NCBI RefSeq assembly: GCF_050320075.1
Contig: NZ_CP190018.1
Reading direction: 5' to 3' (one strand)
Source: Escherichia coli
GTDB taxonomy: Bacteria > Pseudomonadota > Gammaproteobacteria > Enterobacterales > Enterobacteriaceae
Length of the DNA: 64,000 bases
Of this stretch, positions 17,650-19,425 are shown in pieces (position 1 is the stretch's first letter; each line of letters begins with the position of its first letter). Below the pieces are notes generated by a model. That model saw only the letters and a program-made list of their open reading frames with translations. It did not search any database and had not been told where the DNA came from. The position numbers and the translations under genes were made by a program.

Positions 17650-17841
17650 TTAAAATCCTGCCGGGATTTCGTTATTATCCTGGTGAATAACTTTATCGAC
17701 CGGATAACAGTTGCCTGGAATTTTCTGTTCGGTTGCTGCTGCCATACATTCCTGCATTGTTCTGTGAACACTGACTGCAATATCAACTGGCTCTCCGGAA
17801 ACAAGAAAAACCGTCAGAATAAGTGCAAATACTGGATTCAT
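17650..17841 (-). CDS. YdfD-like small protein (Qin-type)
   Basis: MNPVFALILTVFLVSG... hydrophobic N-terminus; immediately downstream of dicB as in Qin (recollection). Confidence 0.45.
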   Translation of the reverse strand: MNPVFALILTVFLVSGEPVDIAVSVHRTMQECMAAATEQKIPGNCYPVDKVIHQDNNEIPAGF

Positions 17842-18026
17842 TGTGCACATCCTTTTGGCATCAGACGTAAACGGGCCAGCATTGAAACAATGCATACTTT
17901 ATTTAATAACTCCCGTTCGTGTTTTCTTTTGTTAATGGCCTCTTCAGTAAATACAGGATTACTGATAGTGACACCAATTTCAAAACAACCTTCAGACGTA
18001 TTAACGTTTGGTAATAACGTTTTCAT
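17838..18026 (-). CDS. dicB: Cell division inhibitor DicB
   Basis: 62-aa MKTLLPNVNTSEGCFEIGVTISNPVFTEEAINKRKHERELLNKVCIVSMLARLRLMPKGCAQ, matches my recollection of K-12 DicB almost residue for residue. Confidence 0.75.
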   Translation of the reverse strand: MKTLLPNVNTSEGCFEIGVTISNPVFTEEAINKRKHERELLNKVCIVSMLARLRLMPKGCAQ

Positions 18027-18195
18027 TATCGCGCCCTCAACAATGAGTTTTGTGATGCGGTGCCTGGTGCCTCCAGGTGACGTTAACCAGTTAACAATTA
18101 ACGCCGGATACAGAGAATCCACCCATAACACTGTTTTTGGTTTTAACTGTTCCGCGTGCGCTTAGCCGCATTCACCGCATCACAAAATTCACTTT

Positions 18196-18253
18196 AAAAA
18201 GGGCGGCAGAGCAGTCACGGAGTAAAACTGATACCGCCAAACGTCACCAGAAA
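18196..18253 (-). ncRNA. dicF: DicF small RNA (ftsZ-targeting)
   Basis: Reverse complement reads TTTCTGGTGACGTTTGGCGGTATCAGTTTTACTCCGTGACTGCTCTGCCGCCCTTTTT, matching the DicF sequence I recall; lies just upstream of dicB. Confidence 0.7.
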
Positions 18254-18594
18254 ATTGATAACAGAGGGCGTTGCAGCGGGGTTGTCACTTAAGCGTATGG
18301 TCAACCTGACAACCCGGTGTCCTCAACGGGGGAAGGAATAACCCCGCCATACTTACCGCCGCGCCATTTCGCGGATTGCCACAACCGGAAGCGCACGGTC
18401 GACGAAAATTTAACGACAGGCTATCTATGAACCAGCTACCTCGCCGTGCGCTTTCGCGTTATGGTCTGACTTTTCAGGGAAATATCCTTTCAGTAAACTG
18501 TCAGTGCCGGATGCTCACCCGTGTCCGGCGCACGCACTCCACCTCACCCGTGGAGAACTCCTTAATTGCTAACCTTAGCTTTGTTGATTAGCTA

Positions 18595-18813
18595 CTAACG
18601 CGGGTATGTAATCATTCTGGCAATGCTTAATGCCGCTGCTTTTTCCAGATTGGTGATATCCTGCTCCAGAGCGGACAGATTTTCAGCCTGCTTAGCCCTG
18701 GCTTCATTAGCCCATTTCAGATCCTGCGCTGCATTAATTTTCTGGCGCATCCACTCATAAAGATCATCATCGGTATAGTCTGGCGCGATGATGACGGGTT
18801 CTCGTTTCTGCAC
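18595..18813 (-). CDS. YdfC-like small protein
   Basis: 72-aa ORF in the ydfABC position of a dicB operon. Confidence 0.45.
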   Translation of the reverse strand: MQKREPVIIAPDYTDDDLYEWMRQKINAAQDLKWANEARAKQAENLSALEQDITNLEKAAALSIARMITYPR

Positions 18814-18842
18814 GCTGATTCCTCGCGGTGCTGTTTCGCTTA

Positions 18843-18971
18843 TCAGCCGTTAGATTTTGCCGAACTGGAAAGCGCCTGTTTAAATTCGCTGAAGCTGAGA
18901 GCTTCTTCGCCTTCGGCAAGGCCTTCGAAGTATTCTTCGTAAGCCTTTTCCATGATTGTGTCGAAATCCAT
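18843..18971 (-). CDS. YdfB-like small acidic protein (42 aa)
   Basis: Sub-threshold ORF MDFDTIMEKAYEEYFEGLAEGEEALSFSEFKQALSSSAKSNG, tightly packed between neighbours. Confidence 0.4.
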   Translation of the reverse strand: MDFDTIMEKAYEEYFEGLAEGEEALSFSEFKQALSSSAKSNG

Positions 18972-18972
18972 A

Positions 18973-19128
18973 TCACCCACCTGAATTTCTTTCCAGCCAG
19001 CGACGCGCTCCAGATTCGGTTTTAAACGTTTTGCTTTTGGTATACGTCATTGCGGTGAAGGTGCCGTCCTGGTTGGGAAACACGCCGTACACCAGAGATT
19101 CGTTGTTGCCAAGATCGATAGTATCCAT
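18973..19128 (-). CDS. YdfA-like small protein (51 aa)
   Basis: MDTIDLGNNESLVYGVFPNQDGTFTAMTYTKSKTFKTESGARRWLERNSGG, internal start of ORF 18973..19209. Confidence 0.5.
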   Translation of the reverse strand: MDTIDLGNNESLVYGVFPNQDGTFTAMTYTKSKTFKTESGARRWLERNSGG

Positions 19129-19425
19129 GCTGACCTCATTTCCCCTTAACGCCGGGGTAGCGGAACAAAAACCTGCTGCATAGTTATTAAAGTTGAACCC
19201 TGCCGTCATGTTCTTACGCCTCGGGCTGGCTACTTAACCCCTGACCACTGCCTGGTAACTCGAAGTATTGCCCTGCATTCTGTGGGGCGGGGTGGGTGGT
19301 AGGTATATAATGTACTTTGCGTTCATTGTTGTAAAGTACTTTTAGTACATTTTGTGTGTAAAAAAATGAGATGGGATAAAGTGAAGCACAAACCCGGAGG
19401 AAGGCGCTACCGGATTTATGCTGGT

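Follow-up and report, generated by a model that had tools for sequence, protein, structure and literature searches.

The dicBF operon and its counterpart in K-12

The window analysed here, a stretch of 64,000 nucleotides of Escherichia coli DNA, carries on its minus strand, between positions 17650 and 19209, the genes ydfA, ydfB and ydfC, the gene for the small RNA DicF, and dicB and ydfD, following one another as they do in the Qin prophage of E. coli K-12 (Table 1). All six elements are located downstream of a repressor gene (19426-19845, minus strand). For the comparison, the Qin locus of K-12 MG1655 together with its annotation was used as the reference, and each K-12 feature was aligned to the window. 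The five open reading frames of the operon are intact, and their lengths, starts and overlaps are conserved, including the 4-nt overlap between ydfD and the stop codon of dicB, which is the same in K-12. The start codon of ydfC is GTG in the window versus ATG in K-12.

Table 1. Features of the dicBF operon and its flanking regions (positions in the window; percentages and fractions are identities to K-12)
Feature	Position	Strand	Comparison or annotation
Exonuclease gene	15116-17556	-	Exonuc_VIII N-terminal region and Rv2179c-like 3'-5' exonuclease domain (Pfam)
ydfD, 63 aa, DUF1482	17650-17841	-	91.7% DNA; 56/63 aa
dicB, 62 aa	17838-18026	-	95.8% DNA; 59/62 aa
dicF-dicB spacer		-	174 nt in window and in K-12; 97.1%
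DicF, 53 nt	18201-18253	-	53/53 identical to K-12 dicF
ydfC-dicF spacer	18254-18594	-	341 nt (K-12: 340 nt); 335/341, 98.2%
ydfC, 72 aa	18595-18813	-	99% DNA; 71/72 aa, GTG read as Met
ydfB, 42 aa	18843-18971	-	98.4% DNA; 42/42 aa
ydfA, 51 aa, DUF1391	18973-19128	-	94.9% DNA; 49/51 aa
Candidate PL-equivalent promoter	19335..19307	-	TTTACA-17-CATTAT, 9/12 consensus match
Immunity repressor gene, 139 aa	19426-19845	-	Pfam HTH_3, E 1.8e-9; no S24 peptidase domain
Repressor-cro intergenic region	19846-19924		two operator-like sites of 16-17 bp, 19870-19885 and 19894-19909
cro-like HTH gene, 84 aa	19925-20179	+	divergent from repressor; PGAP annotation
YdaT-family gene, cII position	20176-20601		after the cro-like gene; Pfam YdaT_toxin

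DicB matched Pfam PF05358 with 132.1 bits (cut-off 27), residues 1-62 falling on profile positions 1-62, and the matches of YdfA to DUF1391 and of YdfD to DUF1482 reached 99 and 88 bits, respectively. Compared to K-12, DicB carries the changes D29E, Q36H and I44V, and YdfD differs in seven residues; despite these three and seven changes both alleles would be expected to be active. The 62-aa reading frame thus aligns to K-12 DicB in 59 of its 62 positions, and its designation as dicB in a first-pass annotation of the sequence stands. The same holds for the identities of the remaining genes and for their Qin order after the repressor, which were borne out by the alignment to K-12 as well as by Rfam and Pfam. 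Furthermore, the window and the chromosome of E. coli YZLc1-3 (NZ_CP123240.1) share 99.98% identity, and ydfA, ydfB, ydfC, dicB and ydfD are named by PGAP in the latter.

The 51-aa form of YdfA, with its start at 19128, was preferred to a 78-aa form beginning at an in-frame ATG at 19209, because K-12 homology sets in only within the extension, the Pfam match spans the short form only and the better ribosome-binding site precedes 19128 (GAGG, 5 nt upstream). The start at 19128 also fits K-12, the PGAP annotation and the Pfam model. Two coordinates of the first-pass annotation thus need minor correction: 19209 is probably not the start of ydfA, and the boundary drawn at 18196 takes in the U5 tail of DicF. 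The first-pass annotation also gave no strand; the whole operon is on the minus strand.

DicF was identified in an Rfam scan of the whole window at gathering thresholds. The match to RF00039, at 18201-18252 of the minus strand, scored 76.7 bits (gathering score 48; E 3.6e-15) and covers model positions 1-52 of 52, with every stem pair being canonical. The segment 18196-18253 of the minus strand, which had been proposed to encode DicF, consists of DicF and its U5 terminator tail; DicF itself aligns to K-12 dicF without a mismatch, and the proposal is upheld. The terminator hairpin (GGCGGUA...UGCCGCC) has 12 predicted pairs and a predicted energy of -15.9 kcal/mol and is followed by UUUUU. This energy is not significantly better than that of shuffled sequence (z -1.64). 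With such a modest z-score, the case for DicF rests on homology and not on fold energy. DicF is located between ydfC and dicB, and the lengths of both spacers agree with those in K-12 to within one nucleotide (Table 1). By homology, the spacer between ydfC and dicF would contain the part of the DicF precursor that RNase III and RNase E process; the processing sites have been mapped in K-12 (PMC10448788).

Immunity region and candidate control elements

When the K-12 locus was compared with the window by BLAST, homology to Qin was confined to one block of 1602 bp (window positions 19166 to 17565, 96.5% identical). Upstream of ydfA this block extends for 38 nt, and downstream of ydfD for 85 nt. 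The window operon agrees with the Qin dicBF operon (b1571-b1576) in the genes it contains as well as in their order, spacing and overlaps. In contrast, the repressor and cro genes belong to another immunity type than those of Qin. The repressor shares 29% identity with K-12 DicA over 112 aa (BLASTP, E 5e-15), and DNA homology to dicA or dicC was not found in the window. Thus, this is not the Qin immunity region, and promoter and operators differ from those of Qin; the control by DicA, DicC and the dicBp operators that is known from Qin was not encountered at the window operon. The end of the homology 38 nt upstream of ydfA, the low identity to DicA and the presence of an operator motif peculiar to this type of immunity together indicate that the operon belongs to the Qin-type family and that its regulatory module has been swapped.

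In its architecture the repressor is DicA-like, both proteins consisting of an HTH domain without a peptidase domain, and the same gene is annotated as 'CI repressor' in phage Tritos. The product of the divergent cro-like gene matched Pfam HTH_17 with 23.3 bits, which is below the gathering cut-off of 27 bits. The antirepressor Rem, present in Qin, is absent from the window prophage; a tblastn search with K-12 Rem gave chance hits only (E at least 0.5).

The gap of 297 bp between the stop codon of the repressor gene and ydfA holds a candidate PL-like promoter. Since the block of Qin homology does not begin until 19166 and leaves it out, this promoter would be part of the immunity module. Two operator-like near-palindromes are placed over it, TGTACTAAAAGTACTT at 19334-19349 and TGAACGCAAAGTACAT at 19310-19325. 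For the repressor gene, a promoter-like sequence (CTGACA-17-TATCAT, 10/12 matches) is present at 19881..19853 of the minus strand. A search of the 64 kb for the motif TGWACNNNNAGTACWT, allowing at most one mismatch, gave five matches that correspond to four distinct sites, whereas 0.66 were expected and none of 100 shuffled sequences reached five. All of these sites are found within two regulatory regions, two of them at 19310-19350 and two at 19870-19909. The four shared operator-like sites suggest that the 139-aa repressor controls the operon and that it would silence it in the lysogen.

The match of the PL-like promoter is weak (9/12), and the promoter scan overall was not enriched over shuffled sequence (7 sites versus 4.8 expected). 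Both observations would suit an operon that is not under the adjacent repressor and is transcribed from an internal or constitutive promoter, the motif being coincidental or serving another protein, e.g. Cro only. We nevertheless consider such an arrangement very improbable, since TGWACNNNNAGTACWT occurs at four sites that lie only in the two regulatory regions where operators are expected, a number of matches not seen in any of the 100 shuffles. The layout of these sites furthermore resembles OL/OR of lambda and other lambdoid phages as well as dicA-dicBp of Qin, where DicA represses dicBp 22-fold and where no internal promoter was found in the dicBF operon (PMC10448788).

The serU prophage and its relatives

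The operon is part of a prophage integrated at the tRNA-Ser(cga) gene serU, beside mtfA, and has at its two ends a direct repeat of 62 nt that corresponds to the 3' part of the tRNA (13715-13776 and 61595-61656). The first-pass annotation had described its late region as lambda-like and full. The former is correct and even understated: positions 1-18002 of lambda (J02459), i.e. cos and Nu1 up to and including most of J, correspond to window positions 33006-53680 at about 95.5% DNA identity, in two collinear blocks (33006-39199 and 41884-53680), and the gene names given by PGAP agree with a lambda structural module. The latter cannot be maintained. Between the two blocks lies ISCro1, an IS66-family element of 2699 bp (39200-41898). 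Its terminal repeats are GTAAGCG... and GTAACCG..., 8 bp of target sequence (GTTTGATC) are duplicated on its flanks, and the major capsid gene, E, is interrupted by it at codon 20. In silico removal of ISCro1 and one copy of the duplication restored a gene E reading frame of 341 aa. The late region is therefore complete in gene content only, and because of the IS element in the capsid gene the prophage is probably defective. The integrase gene was flagged as frameshifted by PGAP in all three genomes inspected, with a 341-aa reading frame containing integrase domains remaining. Downstream of Q, genes for tRNA-Ile2 and tRNA-Arg are followed by an iraM pseudogene; stx genes are absent from the prophage.

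Downstream of the operon, the prophage again departs from Qin. There, ydfE is interrupted by IS2, whereas in the window its position is occupied by a different, mosaic exonuclease gene. Compared to the intact allele of strain XJ6.1, one nucleotide is deleted from this gene close to its 5' end; compared to the corresponding gene of Tritos, only the C-terminal 1.1 kb match (96%). On the whole, Qin is a remnant of 20 kb, while the late genes of the window prophage are nearly all retained.

A close relative already described is Tritos (OV696610), which is prophage 3 of the AIEC strain LF82 and a lambdoid siphovirus that forms plaques on MG1655 and whose virions have been imaged (PMC9928086). Tritos shares with the window the repressor, the cro gene, the YdaT-like gene, the replication gene and the dicBF operon; over window positions 17552-22181, from the exonuclease through the replication genes, the two are 96.8% identical, and DicF is annotated in the Tritos record. 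The distal tail and tail-fibre genes of Tritos are 93-98% identical to those of the window. Unlike the window prophage, Tritos has a fused protease-capsid head module, another integrase and an exonuclease with a ydfE-type N-terminus. It is also functional with a complete late region (PMC9928086), as opposed to the IS-disrupted capsid gene found here.

In E. coli O157:H7, the large lambdoid prophages CP-933O, CP-933M and CP-933P carry dicBF (PMC5069750). These prophages and their Sakai Sp equivalents contain dicF and part or the whole of the dicBF locus (PMC5069750, PMC10448788), so that several copies are present in one genome; they differ from the window prophage in integration site and cargo, the likeness being one of published description. 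A remark from 2016 that dicB and dicF were absent from all sequenced phage genomes (PMC5069750) has been overtaken by the growth of the databases: in a search of phage records, 60 records matched. The joining of a dicBF operon to a lambda-like late region, which the first-pass annotation had implied to be unusual, is thus precedented by CP-933O, CP-933M and CP-933P (PMC5069750) and, with the operon next to a complete late region, by Tritos (PMC9928086).

In order to assess its distribution, a query of 2.5 kb comprising the repressor gene and the operon was compared with complete E. coli genomes. At least part of the query was matched in 4764 of 5426 genomes (88%), at a median of two and up to ten places per genome. 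In 162 genomes 80% or more of the query is covered by a match, which means that both the repressor and the operon are present. Two strains carry the same serU prophage as the window. In Ec-U3 the capsid gene contains the IS found in the window; in XJ6.1 this IS is missing, the capsid gene is truncated and the exonuclease gene is intact. In both siblings the dicBF operon is intact despite the decay elsewhere. An intact version of the prophage was not found among the three genomes inspected.

The IS in the capsid gene, the flagged integrase and the deletion in the exonuclease gene, together with the loss of part of the capsid gene by another route in a sibling strain, indicate a prophage in decay, and the operon could accordingly be imagined as a dead remnant that is conserved through recent acquisition only, with DicF and DicB not made or not functional in this strain. 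We regard this as very improbable, since none of the five reading frames is disrupted and their lengths, starts and overlaps are conserved, DicF agrees with that of K-12 at 100% identity, siblings that decay elsewhere retain the operon, the region is matched in 88% of complete E. coli genomes and often in several copies, and the K-12 copy is expressed and active on an even more degraded prophage (PMC10448788, PMC5069750).

Proposed mode of action and significance

Taken together, we assign a probability of about 95% to the reading of the locus as an ordinary early-left dicBF operon in a lambdoid serU prophage, in which a mosaic module of 1.6 kb shared with Qin is combined with immunity and replication genes of the Tritos type and with head and tail genes of lambda. 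What such an operon does is well described for K-12. Transcription starts from a promoter upstream of ydfA; RNase III shortens the transcript to about 190 nt, and cleavage by RNase E gives the 53-nt DicF (PMC10448788). Through base pairing close to the Shine-Dalgarno sequence, DicF represses ftsZ, and it also regulates xylR, pykA and manX (PMC5069750, PMC6832061). DicB binds MinC and brings it to the septum via ZipA, whereby division is blocked (PMC6832061), and YdfD is a lysis protein that has been reported as an inhibitor of IspG (PMC8835842).

By analogy, the following course can be proposed for the window prophage. In the lysogen, the operator-like sites suggest that the 139-aa DicA-like repressor, bound to operators over the PL-like promoter, would keep the operon silent. 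Derepression would then give rise to a leftward polycistronic transcript. Judging from the work on K-12, whose sequence is 98-100% identical in this part, cuts by RNase III and by RNase E together with a 3' end at the terminator hairpin should release the 53-nt DicF, which would pair with the ribosome-binding region of ftsZ and with the xylR, pykA and manX mRNAs and thereby block their translation. Read-through would lead to DicB, which is expected to bind MinC, to bring it to the septum via ZipA and to dissolve the Z ring, and which may also stop the ManYZ-dependent entry of phage DNA. Read-through would likewise yield the lysis protein YdfD.

The early-left position of a small division inhibitor has a parallel in kil of the lambda PL operon, which, like DicB, is expressed on derepression. 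Kil acts on FtsZ through ZipA, whereas DicB works via MinC, DicF being an antisense RNA; their sequences and mechanisms are unrelated. The window itself carries the structural genes of lambda and not its PL operon.

In the window, dicBF appears to be wired to a repressor that is neither DicA nor equipped with a peptidase domain, and Rem is absent, so that the inducing signal is possibly a different one. It is thus conceivable, though in our view unlikely, that the output of DicF and DicB answers another signal than in K-12 and that the module is kept, via selection at the level of the host, in a serU lineage whose decay proceeds independently in several strains. If true, this selection could be for the exclusion of ManYZ-dependent phages such as lambda, whose tail the prophage carries; even then, an altered signal or host-level selection would be an incremental extension of published ideas only.

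Overall, the operon is real and was identified correctly, but it is known and annotated in RefSeq already. Beyond correct annotation its import is small, as DicF and DicB are textbook division inhibitors encoded by prophages, the copy described here is close to the K-12 reference, and the same arrangement already exists in a characterised functional phage. The useful point lies in a clean case of lambdoid mosaicism: a dicBF cassette of 1.6 kb has been joined, 38 nt upstream of ydfA, to another immunity region, with lambda structural genes elsewhere in the same element, and this cassette is kept while other parts of the prophage decay.

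Lambda-like head and tail module

The prophage inserted at serU shares about 95.5% DNA identity with phage lambda between 33006 and 53680, a stretch that starts at cos and takes in most of J. At the receptor-binding end of J, as well as in lom and the side tail fibres, the sequence either diverges from lambda or matches instead Tritos, a plaque-forming Escherichia phage (OV696610) with the same repressor and dicBF operon. The lambda-type major capsid gene E is interrupted at codon 20 by the insertion sequence ISCro1, which is flanked by an 8-bp target duplication (GTTTGATC) at 39192-39199 and 41899-41906. 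When ISCro1 was deleted in silico, a gene E of 341 aa was regained. The positions of the features discussed here are collected in the table below.

Features of the serU prophage and of its chromosomal flank
Feature	Position	Strand	Remarks
Gene for a giant Ig-like-domain protein	~4325-12307	-	7983 nt; chromosomal flank
62-nt direct repeat	13715-13776 and 61595-61656		from the 3' part of tRNA-Ser(cga); marks both ends of the element
Tyrosine integrase	13804-14854	-	frameshifted according to PGAP in 3/3 genomes examined
Exonuclease gene	15116-17556	-	follows ydfD
Immunity repressor	19426-19845	-
hok/sok type I toxin-antitoxin locus	23873-24196		Rfam sok, 100.8 bits; hokD by PGAP
tRNA-Ile2 (CAU anticodon), tRNA-Arg(UCU), then sRNA STnc100	27333-27589 and 28286-28475		directly downstream of the Q antiterminator
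ISCro1 (IS66 family)	39200-41898		2699 bp; tnpA, tnpB and transposase on the minus strand
MASE4+GGDEF diguanylate cyclase	59671-61002	-	443 aa; intact in the window

Integrase, exonuclease and immunity repressor

Despite the frameshift reported by PGAP, a 341-aa open reading frame with integrase domains persists at the integrase locus. By comparison with the motif of lambda Int, it carries the sequence HDLKAK at the place where HxxR would be expected. In the exonuclease gene, one nucleotide is deleted at gene position 69 as compared to the intact allele of the sibling strain XJ6.1, and a reading frame of 766 aa is still open from an internal ATG. The N-terminal 1.3 kb of this gene show no relationship to the ydfE-type gene that Tritos and K-12 have; the C-terminal 1.1 kb share 96% identity with the Tritos gene. 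No peptidase domain was detected by Pfam in the immunity repressor, and the prophage contains no homologue of Rem, the antirepressor of the cryptic K-12 prophage Qin. Whereas Tritos has an ImmA-like peptidase region, the prophage described here is without one.

tRNA genes downstream of Q and the hok/sok locus

The arrangement following Q is the same as in Stx phages. The tRNA with the CAU anticodon is assigned to Ile by PGAP and to Met by ARAGORN, and the sRNA STnc100 scores 132 bits. As compared to strain YZLc1-3, the chromosome of which is 99.98% identical to the window, three bases (CCC) are missing between the two tRNA genes of the window. Despite this Stx-phage-like layout, no toxin genes are found at this place; an iraM pseudogene and small fragments follow the tRNAs instead. 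The hok/sok locus is 98% identical to the hokD region of Qin.

Chromosomal flank and apparent right-end cargo

In the chromosomal flank, the giant gene contains internal repeats of about 690 bp with 89% identity among them. At the right end of the element, the approximately 2 kb from the last tail-fibre gene to the right repeat are AT-rich (31.8% GC), and the GC content of the diguanylate cyclase gene is very low at 29.7%. The tail-fibre genes precede this gene and the right att repeat follows it, which places it inside the att-bounded element, of which it is apparently a cargo gene. Unlike the copy in the window, that of YZLc1-3 is frameshifted, owing to a single-nucleotide difference at 59830. 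Since a fragment within the same right-end stretch of YZLc1-3 bears the annotation of a partial capsid protein, our analysis suggests that the AT-rich stretch is what is left of an element that previously occupied this site.
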